From: Mustelus asterias
Taxonomy: Eukaryota
Assembly (NCBI RefSeq): GCF_964213995.1
Contig: NC_135812.1
Location: forward strand, 33,170,001-33,234,000
Direction: 5' to 3'
Length of the DNA: 64,000 bases
The notes under the pieces were generated by a model. That model saw only the letters and a program-made list of their open reading frames with translations. It was not told the origin of the DNA and did no database searches. Made by a program: the position numbers and the translations under genes. Positions 16,698 to 58,920 of this stretch are shown one piece after another. Each line of letters opens with the position of its first letter. Within the stretch, counting starts at the first letter, position 1.

Positions 16698-16925
16698 CCA
16701 CACCGAGCCCCGGCCTGGAGTTACAGCCGCTTCCCGTCCCAAGCGGCAGCCTGGCCTCGCCAACCGCGGCCTTACAACGACACCAAGCCGCCCGGGGGTG
16801 GCCCAGCCACCGTGACCGAAGAGCAGGGCCTTCTTACCGCCACCATCCGACACTCATTCCTCTCACTGCCAGAACATCCAACACCGCGGCTGCACTGAGC
16901 GGCCAGAGCGCACCCTCCTGGTGGG
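16698..16925 (-). promoter_or_regulatory. CpG-rich segment; probable non-coding first exon/promoter of the NF2-like gene
   Basis: Local GC/CpG enrichment and a strong minus-strand donor TGG|GTGAGTA at 16697. The first coding exon begins with an acceptor, so it needs an upstream exon. Confidence 0.6.
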
Positions 16926-16935
16926 ATGTACAGTC

Positions 16936-17018
16936 ATGATGTGGAAATGCCGGCCTTGGACTGGGGTAAACACAGTAAGCAGTCTAACAACACCAGGTTA
17001 AAGTCCAACAGGTTTATT
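16936..17018 (-). mobile_element. Penelope terminal fragment
   Basis: tgatgtggaaatgccggccttggactggggtaaacacagtaag...aaagtccaacaggtttatt, flanked by the 9-bp direct repeat tgtacagtc (16927-16935 and 17019-17027). Confidence 0.85.
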
Positions 17019-17029
17019 TGTACAGTCCG

Positions 17030-18900
17030 CAGCCCCAGCAATACAGTCCATCACCCACCCATTCCACCAGCAATACAGCCCATCACCCCACCATCCCCCA
17101 GCAATACAGGCCATCACCCCATCCCCCAGCAATACAGTCCATCATCCCCCAGCAAAACAGGCCATCATCCCCCAGCAATACAGTCCATCACCCACCCATT
17201 CCACCAGCAATACAGCCCATCACCCCACCATCCCCCAGCAATACAGCCCATCACCCCACCATCCCCCAGCAATACAGCCCATCACCCCACCATCCCCCAG
17301 CAATACAGTCCATCACCCCCCAATCCCCTAGCAATACTGTCCTTCACCCCCCATCCCCCAACAATACAGCCCATCACCCCAGCAATACAGCCCATCGGCC
17401 CCATCCCCCAGCAATACAGCCCATCACCCCACCATCCCCCAGCAATACAGCCCATCACCCCAGCAATACAGCCCATCGGCCCCATCCCCCAGCAATACAG
17501 TCCATCACCCCATCCCCCAGCAATACAGTCCATCACCCCACCATCCCCCAGCAATACAGCCCATCACCCCCATCCCCGAACAATACTGTCCATCACCCCC
17601 CATCCTCTAGCAATGCAGTCCATCACCCCCACCCCCCAGCAATACAGTCCATCACCCCCATCCCCGAGCAATGCCACCCATCACCCCCCATCCCCCAGCA
17701 ATACAGTCCATCATCCCTCCATTCCCCCAGCAATACGGTCCATCACGCCCCCCCAATCCCCTAGCAATACAGTCCATCACACCTCTCCATCCCCAAGCAA
17801 TAGTCCATCAGTCCCTCCCCCCCATCCCCCAGCAATACAGTCCATCACCGCCCCCCCCATTTCCCTAGCAGTAGAGTCCATCACTCCTATCCCCCAGCAA
17901 TAGTCCATCACCTCCCCATCCCCCAGCAATACAGTCCATCATCCCCCCCATCCCCCAGCAATACAGTCCATCACCCCCCAGCAATAGTCCATCACCTCCC
18001 CATCCCCCAGCAATACTGTCTTTCACCCCCCATCACCCAGCAATACAGTTCATCACCCCCCATCCCCCAGCAATACAGTCCATCACCCCCCCATCCCCCA
18101 GCAATACAGTCCATCACCCCCCCAATCCCCTAGCAATACAGTCCATCACCCCCCCCCAATCCCCTAGCAATACAGCCCATCACCCCCCCCCATCACCCAG
18201 CAATACAGTCCATCACCCCCCCAATCCCCTAGCAATACAGCCCATCACCCCCCCATCACCCAGCAATACAGTCCATCACCCCCCCAATCCCCTAGCAATA
18301 CTGTCCTTCACCCCCCCATCACCCAGCAATACAGTCCATCACCCCCCATCACCCAGCAATACAGTCCATCACCCCCCATCCCCCAACAATACAGTCCATC
18401 ACCCCCCATCACCCAGCAATACAGTCCATCACCCCCATCCCCCAACAATACAGTCCATCACCCCATCCCCAATAATACAGTCCATCACCCCCATCCCCCA
18501 ACAATACAGTCCATCACCCCCATCCCCCAACAGTACAGTCCATCACCCCCATCCCCCAGCAATACAGTCCATCACCCCCATCCCCCAACAATACAGCCCA
18601 TCACCCCCCATCCCATAGCAATGCAGTCCATCAGCCCCCCCAACCCCCTAGCAATGCATTCCATCACCTCCCCATCCCCCAGCAATATAGTCCATCACCA
18701 ACCCCCCCCCCCTCCCCCCCCGCAGCAATACAGTCCATCACCCCCTATCTCTCAGCAATACAGTCCTGCCAGCCCCCAGCCCCATTCCCCCAGCAATAGA
18801 ATCCTGTTAGCACTCACCCCCATTCCTCCAGTAATGCAGTCCTCTCAGCCCCCCAATTCCTCCATCAATGCAGTCTTTTCTGCCCCCTTCATTCCCCCAG
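17030..18900. repeat. C-rich minisatellite, ~29-33 bp unit, decaying towards ~20200
   Basis: Dozens of tandem copies of ccccagcaatacagtccatcacccccat with variable C-run lengths. Confidence 0.95.
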
Positions 18901-20927
18901 CAATGCAACCTTATCAGCTCCCCTCATTCCCCCATCAAGAGTCCCGCCTGCTCCCCTTCAAAACCCCAGCAATTGCTCCAGCTAAACAGCTCCCTTCAGC
19001 CCCACCCCCAGTATTGCAATTCTCTTTTCCATATCCTAGCAACAGAGCTCCACTCAATCTTCTCCATGCATTGCAGCTATCTTTCTCCACCCAGCCACAT
19101 AGCTCTCCTCACCTCTACCCAGTCACTGTTCCTCTCACTCCCAGCAAAACAACTTTCCTCACTCCTCCACTAGCTACGCAACTTGTCTCACCTGCACAAC
19201 AGCACAATTCCTCATACCTAGTAGCAGAGCTCCCCTCATTGCCTCTACCAGCAGTACAGCTCCCCTTGCTCCAACAACACGGTTTCTTTCACTTCCCAGC
19301 AATGCAGCTTTCTCTCACCAACTCCTCAGCAATGGAGCTCCAGCATCTCATTAGAAGCAACACAACTTCCCCCCACCTCAAGCTACCCCACAGTCCTTAC
19401 CGACAGTGCAGCTGCTGCATTATCCTCTTATATGCAACAACATCCCAACCAAACTGCTTTCAACTGGCCCTCACCCCAAAACATTACAGCTCCATTTATC
19501 CTGCTGTCCAAAGTCCCACTACGAACAGCACAACCCACACAACCAACTACACTGCTCCCAACAGGATCCACTCTCAAACCAAAGTCAAACAGTCGTCATC
19601 TCAAAATTGCAGCTCTTGCAAAAATCACAAACCTAGCAAGATAGCTACTTACACAATCTAACAACACAGCTCCTGAAAACCCATTCTCCAGAAACTCTTC
19701 ATGCAGTCTCCAAACTTCACAATACCTCCAACCCCAGAAATGTTACATCTACGTCGTGCTATTTCAATCATGGTAACTCTTGCTTCCACATAACTCACCA
19801 AGCAATTCAGCCACCATACAAGTCCTGATACCATCACTAACATGTTTAATGCACAGCTCACTTAATCCTTTTTTGGGAACATAGTTCACATCCAACATAG
19901 CTCCTACACAACCCAATAACTACAGGAATGCAGCTCCCACACGGGCCACACCAGCAGCAACACTGCAGTATAGTTTTCACGCTTTATCGATATAGGTTGC
20001 ATCCCCAAAAACTGTTGTCCACATAACCCTTCACCCCAACAACATAGCTCCCACAGTGTCTCCAACTGCAAGCGCACAGCTCAAACCTCAGCCCCCATAC
20101 TTCTGATAAGTTCACATCTATAATACTGGGAACAAAGCCATACTCCCAGTAAGAAAACTTCATGCAGCAAATACCCATATCGCTTGCAACATAGGTTGGG
20201 CATTAGCTACCAACATGATTTCCGCACAAATTCTTAGTGCTAAAAGATCTCGTTGTTCTGATTTATAATTTTCTCTGTATAGAATTATCATGGAACAGAA
20301 CCTAACACTATATTTTTATTGAAAAATATATCCTCATGGCTACTTTTTATTTTAAACTGGACCTTTCGGCTGAACAAAGACCATTAAGTTCACTGACCCT
20401 ATGTCTATGAGTTATTGCTTGTGAGTCGCCAGAAAAAAAAGTCACTTTCAGAAGTCAGAGATGTCACACCTTGTTATTTCTCAACAGACCAGGGGACTGC
20501 ACAGCTCGAGTTCAAAGCAAGCTACACAAAGGCTATTTGTATTTGATAAACCAGGCCTGCAGCAGAGTCAAAGAATCTAGGGAGACAATGACTTCCCAAA
20601 CCAGACCCTCAACAAATAGCACCTCTTTCAACCCATAATTGCTCAGATGCTATCAACCTGGAACACGAAGCCAATTTCAAGACACTGGATACATATCTTA
20701 AATGAAGAAGTATCATACAGACTCAAACATTATTCTTGTTTCTCTCCCCACAGGTGCTGCCAAGCCTGTTAAGTTTTACTGTGTAAACAACCTTTGTTGA
20801 AGACCTCTTGGAGATGTACAGTCACATGACCTAAGATTCTGGCTTGTTGAACAAGTTAATGTTGCCTTCCTGAGCTGCAAGCCAATCTGCTATTTCAACA
20901 TATGACTGTCTGCTGTTTCAACATAAG

Positions 20928-21204: not shown

Positions 21205-23833
21205 AACAGGAAACTTGAGAAACTCGATATCACCACCAGCAGCAATCAAGCCTCCCCGGTTACCACAGTAGAAAACAGTACCACTGCAGGGAAGTCCATT
21301 GTCAACTTGTTGGATACACACTTCAACCAGGTGAAATCGAAGTTCTCAGCCGAGGGCTCAATCTTTGCCCCACCACCAAAATAGACCCCATCACAGCAGA
21401 CACAGAAGAATTCATCAGGCGAATGAGGCTGCGGGAGTTCTTCCACAAACCCCAAGAGGCCAACAGTGAACACAATGAGACAGCCAATGAACCGGAACAG
21501 CCGACAGAGAGATCCGCAGTGCAACCGAAGAGGAAAGAGTCGAATTGGACTCCTCCGGAAGGCCACTGCCCTCGACTTGACATGTATGCCCAAGCCATCA
21601 GGAGGTGCATCAACACCAAATTCATCAGCTGCACTCACAAGACAGCACCGAACATCACCCAAGCACAACGCAATGCCATCCACGCTCTCAAAACCAACCG
21701 CAAAAATGTCATCAAACCAGCAGACAAAGGAAGGGCCATCGTCATACTGAACAGAACGGATTACTGCAAAGAAGTGTACCGACAACTGAACAACGAGGAA
21801 CACTACAGACAGTTACCCACAGATCCGACCAAAGAACACACCCGTCAACTCAACACTCTGATCAAGACCTTTGATCTGGACCTTCAGAGCACCCTCCGTG
21901 CTCTCATCCCACGTACTCCCCGCGTTGGAGATCTCTACTGCCTCCCGAAGATACACAAGGGAAACACACCCAGCCGTCCCATCGTATCAGGCAATGGGAC
22001 CCTGTCCGGCTATGTCGAGGGTATCATGAAACCCATTGTACAAAGAACCCCCAGCTTTTGTCGCGACACTACGGACTTCCTACAGAAACTCAGCGCACAT
22101 GGAGCAGTTGAACCAGGAGCACTCCTCGTCACAATGGATGTCTTGGCACTCTACACCAGCATTCCCCATGATGATGGCATTGCTGCAAAGGCCTCAGTAC
22201 TCAACGCCGACAACTGCCAGTTTCCAGATGCAATTTTACAACTCATCCGCTTTATCCTGGACCAAAATGTCTTCATCTTCAACGACCAGTTCTTCATCCA
22301 GACACACGGAACAGCCATGGGGACCAAATTCGCACCTCAATATGCCAACATCTTCATGCACAGGTTGGAACAAGACTTCTTCACCGCACAGGACCTTCAA
22401 CCGATGCTATACACTAGATACATCGATGACATTTTCTTCCTTTGGATTCATGGTGAACAATCACTGAAACAACTATATGATGACATCAACAAGTTCCATC
22501 CCACCATAAGACTCATCATGGACTACTCTCCGGAATCGGTTGCATTCTTGGACACACGCATCTCCATTAAGGACAGTCACCTCAGCACCTCACTGTACCA
22601 CAAGCCCACAGATAACCTCACGATGCTCCACTTCTCCAGCTTCCACCCTAAACACGTTAAAGAAGCCATCCCCTACGGACAAGCCCTCCGTACACACAGG
22701 ATCTGCTCAGATGAGGAGGATCGCAACAGACACCTCCAGACGCTGAAAGATGCCCTCATAAGAACAGGATATGGCGCTTGACTCATCGATCGACAGTTCT
22801 GACACGCCACAGCGAAAAACCGCACCGACCTCCTCAGAAGACAAGCACGGGACACGGTGGACAGAGTACCCTTCGTCGTCCAGTACTTCCCTGGAGCGGT
22901 GAAGCTACGGCATCTCCTCCAGAGCCTTCAACATATCATTGATGAAGACGAACATCTCGCCAAGGCCATCCCCACACCCCCACTTCTTGCCTTCAAACAA
23001 CCGCACAACCTCAAACAGACCATTGTCCACAGCAAACTACCCAGCCTTCAGGAGAACAGTGACCACGACACCACACAACCCTGCCACAGCAAACTCTGCA
23101 AGACGTGCCGGATCATCGACACGGATGCCATCATCTCACGTGAGAACACCATCTACCAGGTACACGGTACCTACTCTTGCAACTCGGCCAACGTTGTCTA
23201 CCTGATACGCTGCAGGAAAGGATGTCCCGAGGCATGGTACATAGGGGAAACCATGCAGATGCTACGACAACGGATGAATGAACACCACTCGACAATCACC
23301 AGGCAAGATTGTTCTCTTCCTGTTGGGGAGCACTTCAGCGGTCACGGGCATTCGGCCTCTGATCTTCGGGTAAGCGTTCTCCAAGGCGGCCTTCATGACA
23401 CACGACAGCACAAAGTCACTGAGCAGAAACTGATAGCCAAGTTCCGCACACATGAGGACGGCCTGAACCGGGATCTTGGGTTCATGTCACACTGTCACAC
23501 ATGTCACAACCCCCATAGCTTGCCTGGACCTGCAGAATCTCACTGGCTGTCCTGTCTGGAGATAATACACATTTCTTTAACCTGTGCCTATTGCTCTCTC
23601 CACTCACATTGTCTGTATCTTTAAGACTTGATTAGTTGTAAAGATTCGCATTCTAATCAGTATTCTGTAACTTGAGTTTGTGTCTCTGTATGCCTTGTTT
23701 ATGAGCAGATATCCATTCCATCTGACGAAGGAGCAGCGCTCCGAAAGCTAATGGCATTTGCTACCAAATAAACCTGTTGGACTTTAACCTGGTGTTGTTA
23801 AAACTCTTACTGTGTTTACCCCAGTCCAACGCC
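21205..23833 (+). mobile_element. Penelope-like retroelement, 5' truncated and disabled (RT + GIY-YIG endonuclease)
   Basis: ORF 21423-22781 has Penelope RT motifs (KPADKG, LPKIHK, RPIVS, GTAMG, YIDD). The same frame continues after two TGA stops into ORF 22857-23624 with GIY-YIG motifs (VVYLIRC...WYIGET, RMNEH). The 3' terminal repeat ends ccagtccaacgcc. Confidence 0.95.
23718..23754 (+). ncRNA. Minimal type I hammerhead ribozyme motif in the Penelope terminal repeat
   Basis: CCAU-CUGACGA-A-GGAGC(agc)GCUCC-GAAA-GCU-A-AUGG: conserved core, helix I CCAU/AUGG, helix II, and palindromic AGCU helix III as described for Penelope hammerheads. One extra A follows the core. Confidence 0.7.
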
Positions 23834-31259: not shown

Positions 31260-32117
31260 GTAAATTTGATTACTTAGCGGTATATAAAGTGTTATGCAGA
31301 TTAGAGAAAAAGAGACAATGATTGTTTCATTTATTCTGAGATCTTATTTTTTTTCTTTAAAAACTCGTTAGTCCATATTAATGAATTCAGTTTTACTAAG
31401 CAGATTGTGGTGCAGTTTAGGGATTATTTTCCCAATTAATTATTTTCAGCACTTATAATTTCTAAAATATGTGTATAAAGTTTTATTGGTTTCTAGTCAG
31501 AACATTAACAGATTTACTGTTTTGGTTAAAAGATTGTAATCTTCCAAGATTTAACGATTATTATTTTAATAATTTGAAGACTCGACACAAAGAAGAAACT
31601 CTTCACACTGCTAAATTTTACTTATCTCTTTGGAACCACTCATTACTTTCACTGCCCTTAACTCTACAATCGCCAATTTTGACAATCTTGGATTGTCATA
31701 AAATCCCACTTGATTCTTAAATGGCCCTTAGAAAAGAAAACCTTCTGTCCTTATCTAGTCTGGCCTGTTTCTAACCCACATCACCTATCAACATGGTCAA
31801 CTCTTAACTCTCCATTGAAGTCGGCCTGATGAACCACTCAATTATATTGGGGCAACTAAGGGAAGGGCAATTAATGCCAGCCTTGCCAGTGATGCTCATG
31901 TCGAGTGAACAATTTTAAAAAAAAAGTATTTCCAGAACCTTAGCTATTGAACACCTTGCAGTAGATAAATCCACAGTTCCGAACAGTTGGGTTGACGATC
32001 TGCTCTTAGAACTCCAGCATCATTCCTGTCTAAAAGTAGAAGTTCTTTTTTAAAGCGGTAAATGCATGTTAAATGTACTTTTTAAAACAGCACTTTAAAA
32101 TGTCCATCCTTCTACAG

Positions 32118-32408
32118 TTCTACAATAAAAGGAAGACGTATTTTGCTCATGATCCAAAAGAACAGTGCACTGTGGGTGATATCGTACTTCTGAAGGCTTT
32201 GTCTGAACGAAGGACCAAGCACGTTAAACATGAACTGGCAGAAATTGTATTCAAAGTTGGAAATATCATTGATCCCATCACAAGAGAACGCTGTAGTGGA
32301 AGCCGAATAATTGAACCCCTTAAAGACTCTGATTCAGATGTGGGATGCTTGAATGATCATATGAAGAATTTAGAGATCAATGTTGTGCAGAGTAATACAG
32401 AACATTAA
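32118..32408 (+). CDS. MRPS17: Mitochondrial ribosomal protein S17, last coding exon
   Basis: CAG acceptor, encodes FYNKRKTYFAHDPKEQCTVGDIVLLKAL...KHVKHELAEIVFKVGNIIDPIT..., ends at TAA 32408. Confidence 0.95.
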   Translation, partial: FYNKRKTYFAHDPKEQCTVGDIVLLKALSERRTKHVKHELAEIVFKVGNIIDPITRERCSGSRIIEPLKDSDSDVGCLNDHMKNLEINVVQSNTEH

Positions 32409-32606: not shown

Positions 32607-33746
32607 TCCAAATGATTGCGAATAATTTTCAGTTTAGTTTCACATTCAATCCTCATGATATTAGGTGACTTTTAAAATAAATTACTGGTAGGTTTCCAAT
32701 GTAATTTCTTGATCTGTCAAAATGTAAACTGTCGTAGAGCCAGCCAAGGGTGAGACCAATAGAATTTCTGAGTGAGAGACATGCTCTCTGCAATGTCTGA
32801 TATTTGAAACATTATCTTTTCCCCGCATAGTTCTCAACAAGGATAGCCACCATTCATATTCAAGCAATCCCAACACAGTAGAATGAATAACTGGATGGTT
32901 TCTATCCAGTCCATCGTTACCAATCCCACCCTGACCCACACAAATTGTGAGGTTAGGCAAATTGAAATTTTAAAAACCGAGTGATAATTTTGTCAAGCAA
33001 GGACGTTAAGGGATGTCAAACCAATCAGGTCAATGGAACTAACGTACAATTCAGCCATTGTCTAACTGAATCGTGGAACATGCTCAAGGGACTGAATGGC
33101 CACTGTTACACCTTTAAAGCAAAATTTCATTTCACATTTGAACTAGCCACACATATAATCCATCCGTCATATTTTTTAAAGCCCAATTCTTATGAACTTT
33201 ACATCTTCCTAGGAACAAATGCACTACAATTGCAATATAAATGGATAACCATGTTGATCCAATATTTTAAAAAAACACATATGGATGGATAGCTAAAGAT
33301 CACAAGCAGTAATGTCATCTGAGTTCAGATATCTAGAAAACTATGTGTTTTTCTTTTGTGACAATGTGCACGGAAAATCTTTCTCAAGGTCGTGACCGAA
33401 CAGGCCACCTAAGATGGCGATTTGCAAGAGCATGCTGAGATAATTGGACAAGTACTGAAACCGACAGGCTGCAGCTGCAGACGTTGGAATAAACAGGATA
33501 TAGGCCATCTCAAGGATGAAGGACACTTTCTGGTCAAACCAGGTTGTTTACCAGACACGGTGCCTTAACCCCTTATTTTGGAGGGAGGTATGTGAACTAA
33601 GCGCCTCCAGCATCTACAGGTATAGCTGTTGGGTACACACCCAGAGATCGGTGTGGCAGCACCTGATTGTACTAAAGAACAAAGAACAGTACAGCACAGG
33701 AAACAGGCCCTTCGGCCCTCCAAGCCTGTGCCGCTCCTTGGTCCAA

Positions 33747-36671
33747 CTAGACCAATCGTTTGTATCCCTCCATTCCCAGGCTGCTCATGTGACTATCCAG
33801 GTAAGTCTTAAACGATGTCAGCGTGCCTGCCTCCACCACCCTACTTGGCAGCGCATTCCAGGCCCCCACCACCCTCTGTGTAAAAAACGTCCCTCTGATG
33901 TCTGAGTTATACTTCGCCCCTCTCAGCTTGAGCCCGTGACCCCTCGTGATCGTCACCTCCGACCTGGGAAAAAGCTTCCCACCGTTCACCCTATCTATAC
34001 CCTTCATAATCTTGTATACCTCTATTAGATCTCCCCTCATTCTCCGTCTTTCCAAGGAGAACAACCCCAGTCTACCCAATCTCCCCTCATAGCTAAGACC
34101 CTCCATACCAGGCAACATCCTGGTAAACCTTCTCTGCACTCTCTCCAATGCCTCCACGTCCTTCTGGTAGTGCGGCGACCAGAACTGGACGCAGTCCTCC
34201 AAATGTGGCCTGACCAGCGTTCTATACAGCTGCATCATCAGACTCCAGCTTTTATACTCTATACCCCGTCCTATAAAGGCAAGCATACCATATGCCTTCT
34301 TCACCACCTTCTCCACCTGCGTTGCCACCTTCAAGGATTTGTGGACTTGCACACCTAGGTCCCTCTGTGTTTCTATACTCTTGATGACTCTGCCATTTAT
34401 TGTATAACTCCTCCCGACATTATTTCTTCCAAAATGCATCACTTCGCATTTATCCGGATTAAATTCCATCTGCCACCTCTCCGCCCAATTTTCCAGCCTA
34501 TCTATATCCTGCTGTATTGCCCGACAATGCTCTTCGCTATCCGTAATTCCAGCCATCTTCGTGTCATCCGCAAACTTGCTGATTACACCAGTTACACCTT
34601 CTTCCAAATCATTTATATATATCACAAATAGCAGAGGTCCCAGTACAGAGCCCTGCGGAACACCACTGGTCACAGACCTCCAGCCGGAAAAAGACCCTTC
34701 GACCACTACCCTCTGTCTCCTATGGCCAAGCCAGTTCTCCACCCATCGAGCCACTTCTCCTTGTATCCCATGAGCCTTAACCTTCTTAACCAACCTGCCA
34801 TGTGGGACTTTGTCAAATGCCTTACTGAAATCCATATAGATGACATCCACGGCCCTTCCTTCATCAACCGTTTTTGTCACTTCCTCAAAAAACTCCACCA
34901 AATTTGTAAGGCACGACCTCCCTCTTACAAAACCATGCTGTCTGTCACTAATGAGATTGTTCCGTTCTAAATGCACATACATCCTGTCTCTAAGAATCCT
35001 CTCCAACAACTTCCCTACCACGGACGTCAAGCTCACCGGCCTATAATTTCCTGGGTTATCCCTGCTACCCTTCTTAAACAACGGGACCACATTCGCTATC
35101 CTCCAATCCTCAGGGACCTCACCCGTGTCCAAAGAAGCGACAAAGATTTCCGTCCGAGGCCCAGCAATTTCACCTCTCGTCTCCCTGAGCAGTCGAGGAT
35201 AGATGCCATCAGGCCCTGGGGCTTTGTCAGTTTTAATGTTCCCTAAAAAACCTAACACTTCCTCTCTTGTAATGGAGATTTTCTCTAACGGGTCAACACC
35301 TCCCTCCGAGACACTCCCGGTTAACACGCCCCTCTCCTTCGTGAATACCGATGCAAAGTATTCATTTAGGATCTCCCCTATTCCCTTGGGTTCTAAGCAT
35401 AATTCCCCTCCTTTGTCCCTGAGAGGTCCGATTTTCTCCCTGACAACTCTTTTGTTCCTAACGTATGAATAGAATGCCTTAGGATTCTCCTTAATCCTGC
35501 CTGCCAAGAACATCTCGTGACCTCTTTTTGCCCTTCTAACTCCCCGTTTGAGTTCTTTCCTACTCTCTCTGTATTCCTCCAGAGCTCCATCTGTTTTCAG
35601 TTGCCTGGACTTAACGTACGCCTCCCTTTTAATTTTAATCAGATCCTCAATTTCCCTGGTTATCCACGGCTCTCGAATCCTACCTTTCCTATCTTTCCTT
35701 TTTACAGGCACATGCCTATCCTGCAGCCTTATCAATAGTTCCTTAAAAGACTCCCACATGCCAGACGCGGACTTCCCCTCGAACATCCTCTCCCAATCAA
35801 CATCCACCAATTCTTGCCTAATCCGGCTATAGTCAGCCTTCCCCCAATTTAGCACCCTGCCCGTAGGACAGCACTCATCCTTGTCCATTACTATCCTAAA
35901 GTTAACAGAGTTGTGGTCACTATTTGCCACATGTTCCCCGACCGAAACTTTGACGACCTGACCGGGCTCATTTCCCAGAACTAGGTCCAGTATAGTCCCC
36001 TCTCTAGTCGGGCTATCTACATACTGTTCCAAAGAACCTTCCAGTACGCATTTTACAAATTCCTCCCCGTCCGGTCCCCCAGCTCTAAGCACTTTCCAGT
36101 CTGTGCCAGGGAAATTAAAGTCCCCCACTACAACAACCCTATGTTTTCTGCACCTATCCAGAATCTCCTGACATACCCTTTCCTCCACTTCCCGTGGGCT
36201 GTTGGGTGGTCTGTAGTACACCCCCAGCATAGTGACTGCACCCTTCCTGTTTCTGAGTTCCACCCACAGCGACTCAGTACATGACCCCTCTAAGTTGTCT
36301 ACCCTCTGCACCGCGGTAATATGCTCCTTAACTAATATCGCTACTCCCCCACCTTTTTTAGCCCCTCCTCTGTCTCGCCTAAAACACTTATACCCCGGAA
36401 TATTCAGTTGCCAGTCCTGTCCTTCTTTTAACCAAGTTTCCGTCACCGCAACCACATCCAAATTCCGCACAAGCATTAAGGCCCTAAGTTCGTCTGTTTT
36501 ACCCGTTACACTCCTCGCATTGAAGCAGATGCACTCCAGACCTCCAGGCCCAGTCAGGTCCTCCTCCTCCAGAGTGCTCCTCTTCTTAGCTAGCCTTGCC
36601 CTGGCCCCCAACTCGACCCCAGCCTCAGTATTTACTGACCTCCTGTTTTGTTCCCCACCCCCCTGCCACAC
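33747..36671 (-). CDS. CR1 ORF2: APE endonuclease + reverse transcriptase, uninterrupted
   Basis: FNARS, VTETW, YRPP, GDFN, SDH (endonuclease); KAPGPDG, YRPVSL, DFSKAFD, PQGSVLGP, FADD (RT). Confidence 0.95.
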   Translation of the reverse strand: MWQGGGEQNRRSVNTEAGVELGARARLAKKRSTLEEEDLTGPGGLECICFNARSVTGKTDELRALMLVRNLDVVAVTETWLKEGQDWQLNIPGYKCFRRDRGGAKKGGGVAILVKEHITAVQRVDNLEGSCTESLWVELRNRKGAVTMLGVYYRPPNSPREVEERVCQEILDRCRKHRVVVVGDFNFPGTDWKVLRAGGPDGEEFVKCVLEGSLEQYVDSPTREGTILDLVLGNEPGQVVKVSVGEHVANSDHNSVNFRIVMDKDECCPTGRVLNWGKADYSRIRQELVDVDWERMFEGKSASGMWESFKELLIRLQDRHVPVKRKDRKGRIREPWITREIEDLIKIKREAYVKSRQLKTDGALEEYRESRKELKRGVRRAKRGHEMFLAGRIKENPKAFYSYVRNKRVVREKIGPLRDKGGELCLEPKGIGEILNEYFASVFTKERGVLTGSVSEGGVDPLEKISITREEVLGFLGNIKTDKAPGPDGIYPRLLRETRGEIAGPRTEIFVASLDTGEVPEDWRIANVVPLFKKGSRDNPGNYRPVSLTSVVGKLLERILRDRMYVHLERNNLISDRQHGFVRGRSCLTNLVEFFEEVTKTVDEGRAVDVIYMDFSKAFDKVPHGRLVKKVKAHGIQGEVARWVENWLGHRRQRVVVEGSFSGWRSVTSGVPQGSVLGPLLFVIYINDLEEGVTGVISKFADDTKMAGITDSEEHCRAIQQDIDRLENWAERWQMEFNPDKCEVMHFGRNNVGRSYTINGRVIKSIETQRDLGVQVHKSLKVATQVEKVVKKAYGMLAFIGRGIEYKSWSLMMQLYRTLVRPHLEDCVQFWSPHYQKDVEALERVQRRFTRMLPGMEGLSYEGRLGRLGLFSLERRRMRGDLIEVYKIMKGIDRVNGGKLFPRSEVTITRGHGLKLRGAKYNSDIRGTFFTQRVVGAWNALPSRVVEAGTLTSFKTYLDSHMSSLGMEGYKRLV

Positions 36672-37699
36672 TAGTTTAAATCCTGCCGAAACACTCTAGC
36701 AAAACTCCCAGCCAGGATATTTGCTCCCTTCCAGTTAAGGTGTAACCCATCCTTTCTGTACAGTTGCCATCCTGACTTGAAGATTTCCCAGTTATCTATG
36801 AATTTAAAACCCTCCTTCTTGCACCAGTCCTTTAGCCACGCGTTCAACTGTAGAATCTCCCTGTTCCGAGCCTCACTTGCACTCGGCACCGGGAGCAGTC
36901 CAGAGATTGCTACCATGGAGGTCTTACTTTTTAGCCTAGCACCCAACTCCCTGAATTTCTCTCGTATGACCCCCCTGCTCTTCCTACCTACATCATTTCC
37001 CCCAATGTGTACAATCACGTCCGTTTGACTACCTTCCTTTTTAAATATGCTTCCTACCCTCTCGGAGATATCCAGTACCCCGGCACCAGGGAGGCAGACT
37101 ACCATCCTGGATTCTCGTTCAGTCCCACAGAAGCGCCTGTCCGTGCCTCTAACCATTGCGTCCCCCACAACTATCGCTCTCCTAAACCCCTTCTTTCCCT
37201 TCCGGACCCCTGAGCCTGTCTCCGTGGAGGCGATCTGGTCCTCGTGGCTTACCCCTGGAGGGTCATCCCCCTCCACAGAATCCAAAACAAGATATCTATT
37301 TTGGAGGGGGACAACCACAGGGGATCCCTCCACAGACTGCTCACTCCCTTCCCTTCTCCCATCTGTTGCCCATTCCTTTCTTTTATGGGAGACTGCCACT
37401 GGGGTACTTTCTGGCACATCACCCTTCTGACTATTACCCCTCCTAACTGTGACCCACGTGTCTTCCTTCCGAGACCCTGGTGTCACTACCTGACTATAAC
37501 TTTTATCTATTACTCGCTCATTTTCCCTAACTAAACTGAGTTCATCGAGCCTCAGCTCCAGCTCCCTTACACGATCCTTCAGGAGATGCAGTTCCACACA
37601 TCTGGCACAGATATGGACTTCCGGGAGGCAAGTTGTCTCCAGGAACTCCCACATCCCACACCGAATGCAGTATACTGGCCTCCCACTCATACCAGCCAT
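36671..37699 (-). CDS. CR1 ORF1: zinc-finger/coiled coil + SGNH esterase-like domain
   Basis: CIRC...CARC followed by LKDRVRELELRLDEL; GDAMVRG, HIGGND, DGLHLN. Start placed at the MAGMSG ATG. Confidence 0.9.
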   Translation of the reverse strand: MAGMSGRPVYCIRCGMWEFLETTCLPEVHICARCVELHLLKDRVRELELRLDELSLVRENERVIDKSYSQVVTPGSRKEDTWVTVRRGNSQKGDVPESTPVAVSHKRKEWATDGRREGSEQSVEGSPVVVPLQNRYLVLDSVEGDDPPGVSHEDQIASTETGSGVRKGKKGFRRAIVVGDAMVRGTDRRFCGTERESRMVVCLPGAGVLDISERVGSIFKKEGSQTDVIVHIGGNDVGRKSRGVIREKFRELGARLKSKTSMVAISGLLPVPSASEARNREILQLNAWLKDWCKKEGFKFIDNWEIFKSGWQLYRKDGLHLNWKGANILAGSFARVFRQDLN

Positions 37700-38977
37700 G
37701 TCCTTTTTAGTTTTGGGGATAAAACAAAAAGGGGGTGTAACCGAAGAAAAACAAACAAACAACCTTCCTCGCCTTCGCCGAAGCCCTGTGAGCCAAAGCC
37801 CTTTTAGCTCTCACTCTGTCCCCTGCTCACTCCGCTGCCCACTAACGACGCTGCCCGCTCAAGGGTGCGGCCTACTTTTAAACCCTCCAAAACCTTCCCA
37901 GGCTGCTGCTGGGCCTATTTCCTGTTTAGAAAAAAAACCTCCGATTTTTTTCACTAATTTAACTGAAAAAATAATTAAATAAATTAGTGCACACACAAGC
38001 TCCCTTACCCTCAGCCTGCTCCTGTGGAACAATGAGCAGGGTGATCATGCTCTGATCGATTGATTGGCAATAACTAAAAAGGGCGCGAAACCAACGAGGT
38101 GCAAAAGTTACAGCACAACAGAAGAATCTCTCCCTGTCTCTCACGAACGACAACAATGGTGACTATCGCCAGCAATGACCTGCATGAGGAGAGCCACCAA
38201 AGAAGGAAGGATGACCAGAGCCAGAGTATCAGATCAGACCGAAGGACCAGACTGCACAGGACTACGGAGACCAACGCAAATAAAGGCCAATATCTGCCTG
38301 GGTACTTGTCAGTCACGCAAAAGTTAAGTCAAGGTCTAGTATTGAACTTTAGTATTCTGTGAGATAATTTAGTATTGATTGTGTGGGTGATTAATAATTG
38401 TGAATAAATATTACTGTACTAACGACGTCGACTCGCAATTCGTTGTCCACCATATAAGGGTTAAAACAGACTGTGCGGCAGGAGCAGCAATAAGGTCATG
38501 GCTGATTAAATCACTGGCAATCAATGATCAGAGAAGGCTTAGATAACCAGGAGCTTAACTGAAGAAAAGCTAATTTACCAAGTGTGGATAAAGGTATACA
38601 TAACCAATGAAAGTTATTTTTCCCGTTTTAAGGTTTTCCTGGGCATTAGTATAGGTATCAGGCTTACTGTTAGATGTATAAGGGAGGCGTGAAACTTATT
38701 TCTTCAGAATTGGGAAACGATTGGCCACCTCCAACACCACCATCTAGACTGTCAACTCAAGGATGACAATTTTACAAGTAAACGTTGTTCACATTGAAGT
38801 ATTGCATCATCGTGCTACCGAATAAATCTCCCTAGAATTAGTATAACTTGGAAATTTGCATCAAAGAAACTTCTCCCTCAAAACTCAACTGTTGACAATA
38901 TTTGAGGTATAATGTAGCATTTTTAATAGCACTAAAATCTGCTTTTCTTAACTTCAACTCAAGTGAAATATTAGGTA

Positions 38978-57979: not shown

Positions 57980-58920
57980 TATAAATGATTTGGAAGAAGG
58001 TGTAACTGGTGTAATCAGCAAGTTTGCGGATGACACGAAGATGACTGGACTTGCGGATAGCGAAGAGCATTGTCGGGCAATATAGCAGGATATAGATAGG
58101 CTGGAAAATTGGGCGGAGAGGTGGCACATGGAGTTTAATCCGGATAAATGCGAAGTGATGCATTTTGGAAGAAATAATGTAGGGAGGAGTTATACAATAA
58201 ATGACAGAGTCATCAGGAGTATAGAAACACAGAGGGACCTAGGTGTGCAAGTCCACAAATCCTTGAAGGTGGCAACACAGGTGGTGAAGAAGGCATATGG
58301 TATGCTTGCCTTTATAGGACGGGGTATAGAGTATAAAAGCTGGAGTCTGATGATGCAGCTGTATAGAACGCTGGTCAGGCCACATTTGGAGTACTGCGTC
58401 CAGTTCTGGTCGCCGCACTACCAGAAGGACGTGGAGGCGTTAGAGAGAGTGCAGAGAAGGTTTACCAGGATGTTGCCTGGTATGGAGGGTCTTAGCTATG
58501 AGGAGAGATTGGGTAAACTGGGGTTGTTCTCCCTGGAAAGATGGAGAATGAGGGGAGATCTAATAGAGGTGTACAAGATTATGAAGGGGATAGATAGGGT
58601 GAACAGTGGGAAGCTTTTTCCCAGGTCGGAGGTGACGATCACGAGGGGTCACGGGCTCAAGGTGAGAGGGGCGAAGTATAACTCCGATATTAGAGGGATG
58701 TTTTTTACACAGAGGGTGGTGGGGGCCTGGAATGCGCTGCCAAGTAGGGTGGTGGAGGCAGGCACGCTGACATCGTTTAAGACTTACCTGGATAGTCATA
58801 TGAGCAGCCTGGGAATGGAGGGATACAAACGATTGGTCTAGTTGGACCAAGGAGCGGCACAGGCTTGGAGGGCCGATGTGCCTGTTTCCTGTGCTGTACT
58901 GTTCTTTGTTCTTTGTTCTT
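57980..58920 (+). mobile_element. 5'-truncated CR1, same young family as the full-length copy
   Basis: Protein nearly identical to the C-terminus of ORF 33747-36671 (both end GMEGYKRLV), with the same 3' UTR and (tgttctt)n tail. Confidence 0.95.

Follow-up and report, generated by a model that had tools for sequence, protein, structure and literature searches.

A conserved slippery heptamer at the ORF1–ORF2 junction of CR1 retrotransposons, a probable site of programmed −1 frameshifting

The 64,000-nucleotide stretch of Mustelus asterias DNA analysed here (contig NC_135812.1, positions 33,170,001 to 33,234,000; hereafter the window, in whose own coordinates features are given) carries a CR1 long interspersed element (LINE) whose first open reading frame (ORF1) ends on the slippery heptamer U_UUA_AAC. 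Programmed −1 frameshifting on this heptamer probably yields a fusion of ORF1 with ORF2, a reading that we draw from the sequence of the junction and of its relatives. The majority of ribosomes would terminate after Leu-Asn, releasing the ORF1 protein (ORF1p), while a minority, with the stop codon next, would slip back one base with the Leu- and Asn-tRNAs on U_UUA_AAC and pass the junction as Leu-Asn then Leu-Val-Trp; we infer both the slip and its rate. The product, ORF1-linker-endonuclease-reverse transcriptase (RT), would have ~1,317 aa (342 + 975) and would resemble retroviral Gag-Pol. The pause could come from the adjacent stop codon together with a G-run 10 nt ahead.

Heptamer and reading frames in the window

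The junction and the two frames that meet there comprise the following features:

36671–37699 (minus strand): ORF1, 342 aa, from the ATG at 37699 to the TAG at 36671, ending Gln-Asp-Leu-Asn-stop
33747–36695 (minus strand): ORF2 frame, 982 aa from stop to stop, with no internal stop
36696–36698 (minus strand): TAG closing the ORF2 frame upstream, the sixth codon before the heptamer
36674–36680 (minus strand): slippery heptamer U_UUA_AAC (TTTAAAC), in the ORF1 phase X_XXY_YYZ, abutting the stop
36671–36673 (minus strand): ORF1 stop TAG, immediately 3' of the heptamer, where the −1 frame reads CTA G..
36669–36671 (minus strand): ORF2-frame GTG that overlaps the ORF1 stop, a candidate reinitiation start
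36510–36524 (minus strand): FNARS, the first motif of the endonuclease, lying 5' of the first ORF2 AUG

This layout bears out the initial annotation, which had described an ORF1 ending GAT TTA AAC TAG with the heptamer in phase (36680–36674), an ORF2 in the −1 frame with a TAG six codons upstream, and a first ORF2 AUG downstream of FNARS. The upstream TAG at 36696–36698 confines entry into the ORF2 frame to the five codons before the heptamer, or to later positions. The sole Met within the first 120 aa of that frame lies at 36476, 3' of the FNARS codons (36524–36510), and a start there would remove the first endonuclease motif. The slip had also been read as TTT AAA CTA, which stands as a description of the DNA frame but not of the peptide: the standard tandem-slippage model would give Asp-Leu-Asn then Leu-Val-Trp, so that Phe-Lys-Leu is not the expected product.

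UUUAAAC is the slippery site of coronaviruses. Slippery heptamers are nonetheless common by themselves (23 loosely defined ones lie within 33.5–38 kb of the window, and the whole window has 20 copies of TTTAAAC), so the argument rests on conservation, position and phase. Contig variants from four sequencing runs offer weak evidence on the first of these, none of the 40 listed falling at 36671–36680, with others among those listed at 36681, 36684 and 36685.

Conservation of the heptamer and of ORF1 endings

We collected relatives through an esterase motif remote from the junction, which gave 30 loci in a metagenome scan and one in a viral scan, 31 in total; 14 of these span the ORF1 end, the remainder, which do not enter the counts, being 16 that end before it and one (L031) without a match. 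The heptamer is found at the ORF1 end in 13 of the 14 (12 TTTAAAC and one GTTAAAC), at the exact expected position in nine and shifted in four, and 11 of the 13 have a stop immediately 3' of it. The divergent element L002:680-3650 has G_UUA_AAC, two consecutive stops and a G-run at 7 nt, and its −1 frame is open for 973 codons. Codon use in these elements (TTA for 31 of 303 Leu, AAC for 51% of Asn, T at 26% of third positions) gives the heptamer a chance of ~0.014 per independent lineage.

Published consensuses, which we read by eye at 400 characters per entry from Supplementary Table 2 of PMC13343379, gave the same picture. A search with Asp-Gly-Leu-His codons, in which the heptamer was not queried, returned 17 rows, nine with the CR1 motif and eight showing the junction, and all eight have TTTAAAC plus a stop (two from alligator, three from dogfish and one each from crocodile, sawfish and catshark). 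Heptamer-led searches of the consensuses, which return positives only, added further CR1s with TAG, TAA or TGA stops. From their name codes we take these additions to be from bowfin, bullfrog, coelacanth, elephant shark, stingray, bearded dragon and a teleost. Across the published consensuses the stop thus varies among all three codons while the heptamer is constant.

The test by which the initial annotation proposed to stand or fall, conservation of heptamer, phase and −1 frame in relatives, came out in its favor across vertebrate CR1s, in which an AUG is not conserved; its ascription of the feature to a single CR1 family was too narrow, the same junction occurring across related CR1s. The junction signal is real, old and widespread. 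It combines three of the features looked for in a −1 frameshift site: an in-phase heptamer, an open downstream ORF in the −1 frame, and conservation of synonymous positions across lineages.

At the protein level we gathered 233 ORF1 homologues and anchored 181 at their catalytic Asp-x-x-His, using a profile from which the terminal columns were left out; tail counts use the 167 anchored proteins with tails of ≤45 aa. Leu-Asn ends 113 of these tails, Gly-Asn 10 and Lys-Asn two, and outside the seed alignment Leu-Asn ends 85 of 138. Although 14 different residues precede Leu-Asn, one whose codon cannot end in T does so in only 1 of 94 unique tails, while the corresponding figure for the three residues further upstream is 82 of 282, a comparison whose significance is inflated by related sequences. 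Leu, Gly or Lys precedes the terminal Asn in 125 of 131 Asn-ending tails (inside the esterase domain, Leu, Gly, Lys or Pro precedes 21% of Asn), and these are three of the four residues permitted by XXA codons. Gln, whose codon can end in G and not in T, precedes nine of the 10 Gly-Asn endings, and Gln-Gly-Asn endings would be compatible with G_GGA_AAC; the Gly-Asn and Lys-Asn families, which are more distant, may carry the heptamers G_GGA_AAC and A_AAA_AAC. We did not score Phe-Phe endings as perfect heptamers, since they follow Gln or Glu, neither of which has a codon ending in T.

Could these endings reflect the protein rather than the RNA? ORF1p might require a C-terminal Leu-Asn, its codons being common by descent; terminal Asn is indeed found in 131 of 166 tails, and many of the sequences are closely related. 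We consider this very improbable. An infrequently used Leu codon and a T in third position are invariant all the way from sharks to birds; Leu, Gly and Lys have no chemical kinship; and in five proteins of one clade Lys-Asn is internal, followed by 10–12 further residues, which points to more than a C-terminal requirement. The modelled ORF1 structure has its final helix reaching only as far as residue 337, with the last four residues outside it, a weak point since termini are usually of low confidence.

A tree of 76 representatives out of 164 sequences has one well-supported clade of 18 rows that mixes Gly-Asn, Lys-Asn, Leu-Asn, Phe-Phe and Gly-Phe, with three rows having none of these. A separate six-member clade lacks such terminal endings and includes an Astyanax protein that we take to be L2-type. 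Three ORF1 homologues read through the junction as Phe-Lys-Leu, that is, in the −1 reading. A search for longer proteins gave 15; those with names are gene models from vertebrates, and a naturally fused family was not established among them. Four CR1-like proteins (P0019, P0072, P0250 and P0320) stand under NCBI bacterial names (Pseudomonas, a gammaproteobacterium, Carnobacterium and Brocadiaceae) and most likely represent contamination by animal DNA.

Entry into ORF2 and candidate stimulators

In the linker, the window element and 11 loci have only one stop among 544 codons of the −1 frame, the other two frames having 38 and 49 stops in 532 codons each. No conserved AUG was found at or near the ORF1 stop: the window has none, and among 14 sequences codon 4–5 of the −1 frame is AUG in five, GTG in three (window included) and neither in six. 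The position of the window GTG is taken in relatives by ATG, GTG, GTA, GGT, GAT, AAG and others. L1 is said not to require a conserved AUG near the ORF1 stop.

These codons bear on the chief rival to frameshifting, termination-reinitiation, in which ribosomes stopping at the end of ORF1 would resume translation at a codon (AUG, GUG or another) that overlaps the stop or lies near it and make a separate ORF2p, the conserved bases then serving to signal termination or reinitiation. The calicivirus TURBS motif has TGGGA as its core, and this pentamer occurs ≤100 nt upstream in six of the 14 sequences, but at four discordant distances (−30, −37, −72 and −76). The window GTG overlaps the stop, four loci have an AUG at codon 5, and TAATG is found in L021 and in three of the eight published consensuses, which amounts to real support in some families; those TAATG-bearing families retain the heptamer as well, and in them reinitiation could coexist with frameshifting. 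The mechanism has been reported for SART1 and L1 (PMC2881922, PMC3894237). Nonetheless we regard it as unlikely here, since it has neither AUG nor GTG to work with at codon 4–5 in six of the 14 sequences and predicts neither the strict X_XXA_AAC phase, nor the constant −1 frame, nor the swaps among Leu, Gly and Lys before Asn. It is the heptamer phase and these swaps that separate frameshifting from an AUG-independent form of reinitiation.

A further alternative places the function of TTTAAA in DNA or RNA processing, as a TATA-like internal promoter or the neighbor of a splice acceptor, either of which would lead to a separate ORF2 mRNA. Similar TTTAAA motifs lie in the 5' untranslated region (UTR) of the window element (37882) and of two dogfish consensuses, and the ORF2 frame is joined directly ahead of Phe-Lys-Leu in many gene models from birds. 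However, the window element would offer such an mRNA no AUG ahead of the endonuclease motif, the codon phase and the Gly-Asn and Lys-Asn classes would be left unexplained, and gene models are predictions that may simply chase a long open frame; we give this the lowest probability of all the explanations considered.

For frameshifting itself, two downstream elements named in the initial annotation are both present:

36653–36663 (minus strand): candidate stimulator, a G-run that begins 10 nt past the heptamer
36625–36638 (minus strand): small TCAGTA/TACTGA hairpin, 5 bp with a 4-nt loop, starting 35 nt after the heptamer

The hairpin was rejected as a stimulator, being 35 nt away, with z near 0 and no stable fold in relatives; downstream of the window heptamer, none of five folding windows exceeded shuffled sequences in stability (z −0.44 to +0.57). 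A long-range duplex was likewise rejected, as was a conserved four-run quadruplex, which the minimum-energy fold includes in only three of 12 sequences. What survives of the proposed G-quadruplex is the positional conservation of its first G-run: in 10 of 12 sequences a run of at least five G begins precisely 10 nt past the heptamer, and in the other two at 9 and 7 nt, with a background of 2–11 such runs per region of 0.7–2.1 kb. The Gly codon at this run is GGG in 12 of 12, against 32% of Gly codons elsewhere. We therefore treat the G-run 10 nt downstream as a candidate stimulator only. A stem-loop or pseudoknot at 5–9 nt, the usual companion of a slippery site, was not found with a folding program that does not model pseudoknots, and the G-run at 10 nt stands in its place.

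Several points weigh against frameshifting, besides the TAATG sequences and the AUG or GTG codons (together in eight of 14) already described. U_UUA_AAC normally requires a stimulator, and we found no stable stem-loop after the heptamer in 12 sequences (z −1.2 to +1.8) and no long-range pairing partner clearly above shuffled controls; the G-run lies at 10 nt in only four of the eight published consensuses, at 6 nt in one, and is absent or unclear in three. The 13 heptamer-bearing loci were hand-picked and anchored on the nearest TTAAAC, and are not independent, as they come from only seven data sets and are mostly bird-CR1-like; two of them lack the adjacent stop, and the one locus of 14 without the heptamer, L027, is a degenerate copy resembling L2. 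Among the protein tails, 54 of 167 end other than in Leu-Asn, many without a slippery-compatible ending. No DNA for the Gly-Asn or Lys-Asn families was found in viral contigs (one weak bacterial-like locus), genome contigs (one weak actinobacterial locus) or plasmids (no match). Finally, the open −1 frame would also be expected under AUG-independent reinitiation and does not discriminate.

A broader form of the frameshifting proposal, possible though short of probable, is that all esterase CR1 LINEs of jawed vertebrates, and distant relatives with swaps among U_UUA_AAC, G_GGA_AAC and A_AAA_AAC, make a Gag-Pol-like fusion, and that the vertebrate stimulator is the G-run 10 nt downstream (protein-bound or quadruplex) plus the adjacent stop, and not a stem or pseudoknot.

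Known systems, element anatomy and neighboring features

The arrangement resembles that of gag-pol in retroviruses and long terminal repeat (LTR) retrotransposons and of coronavirus ORF1a/1b, with X_XXY_YYZ at the end of the upstream ORF, the polymerase in the −1 frame and a low-abundance fusion expected (PMC5009743). It differs in that the window CR1 is a non-LTR element, the stop abuts the heptamer, no pseudoknot or stem was found, and a G-run stands at 10 nt. With SART1 and human L1 it shares a bicistronic LINE RNA in which ORF2 adjoins the ORF1 stop, and some CR1 families have TAATG; SART1 (UAAUG) and L1 make a separate ORF2p (PMC2881922, PMC3894237), whereas in CR1 the heptamer is conserved and the AUG is not. 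Two other cases of recoding in non-LTR elements are more distant: 2A StopGo, in CR1 and other APE-type elements, is found mostly in elements without ORF1 (PMC3894237), and the HeT-A frameshift lies within gag, in an element that encodes no RT (PMC5009743).

Canonical esterase-ORF1 CR1 LINEs (type IVB, subgroup CR1_7; Metcalfe and Casane 2014, PMC4120745; vertebrate CR1s of PMC13343379) match the window element in their ORF1 with zinc finger/leucine zipper and esterase, in their ORF2 with APE endonuclease and RT, and in the junction sequence of their published consensuses. The accessible passages describe two separate ORFs, in contrast to the fusion proposed here. The accessible main text of PMC13343379 does not contain the word 'frameshift', and the accessible portion of PMC5009743 does not mention CR1 and treats LINE ORF2 as a non-recoding case. 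We found no report of CR1 frameshifting in the literature searched, outside which lie the founding CR1 papers of 1997–2003 and Repbase, which may mention the signal. We thus propose a known mechanism in an element class for which no report was found, and its novelty is not certain.

CR1s are the dominant retrotransposon group in most vertebrate species (PMC13343379), translation of LINE ORF2 has been described as an open question (PMC3894237), and reinitiation is the only route that has been worked out for it (PMC2881922). If the proposal is true, a major LINE clade employs the retroviral solution, and does so with an ancient −1 site that has no obvious RNA structure. Physical linkage of the RT to ORF1p, esterase included, would have a bearing on particle assembly and cis preference, AUG-based annotations of ORF2 would be too short, and the broken frame at the junction would serve a function and not signify decay.

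The element is completed by its two UTRs:

37700–37990 (minus strand): 5' UTR, upstream limit approximate, resembling by eye the 5' end of PriPec_CR1-6a
33674–33746 (minus strand): short 3' UTR with a TTCTTTG-type repeat at its end and no poly(A)

ORF1 encodes, in order, a Cys-rich zinc-finger-like N-terminus, a coiled-coil helix, a low-confidence linker and an SGNH/GDSL esterase, according to Pfam (PF13472, E 2.6e-11) and the structure model, and its closest named homologues are ray and shark proteins. The ORF2 frame has a linker of ~50 aa, then an APE endonuclease (PF03372, E 4e-17, starting at ORF2-frame residue 58), then an RT (PF00078, E 9e-37). CR1s have a 3' tail of short repeats instead of poly(A). 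This tail, the zinc finger/coiled coil and esterase of ORF1, and the APE and RT of ORF2 all place the element in CR1, and by this architecture and its by-eye likeness to named CR1 consensuses we judge it to be a full-length, ordinary CR1 LINE. A 944-base 3' fragment at 57980–58914 (plus strand) has 96% identity to it, pointing to recent activity of the family; older fragments of CR1 occur near 26.2–27.3, 44.1–44.8, 50.4–50.9 and 63.1–63.5 kb. The 5' UTR contains TTTAAAA at 37882–37876 (minus strand), within 37876–37885, and TTTAAACTAG/A is present in the 5' UTRs of two dogfish consensuses; these TTTAAAA/TTTAAACTAG sequences could be a TATA-like box or the remnant of an older junction. Many proteins predicted from stork gene models join the ORF2 frame immediately ahead of Phe-Lys-Leu and continue through an open linker of 94–97 residues to the endonuclease motif, with Met positions that differ between copies.

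Elsewhere in the window, ~1.3 kb from the CR1 3' end, an exon-like frame at 32073–32408 (plus strand) matches Pfam Ribosomal_S17 and is probably part of a gene for mitochondrial ribosomal protein S17. Two successive long frames at 21219–23624 (plus strand), the first with an RT match and the second GIY-YIG-like by eye with no Pfam match, probably represent a Penelope-like element. Long C-rich tandem-like repeats at 16900–19700 give rise to several low-complexity open frames.

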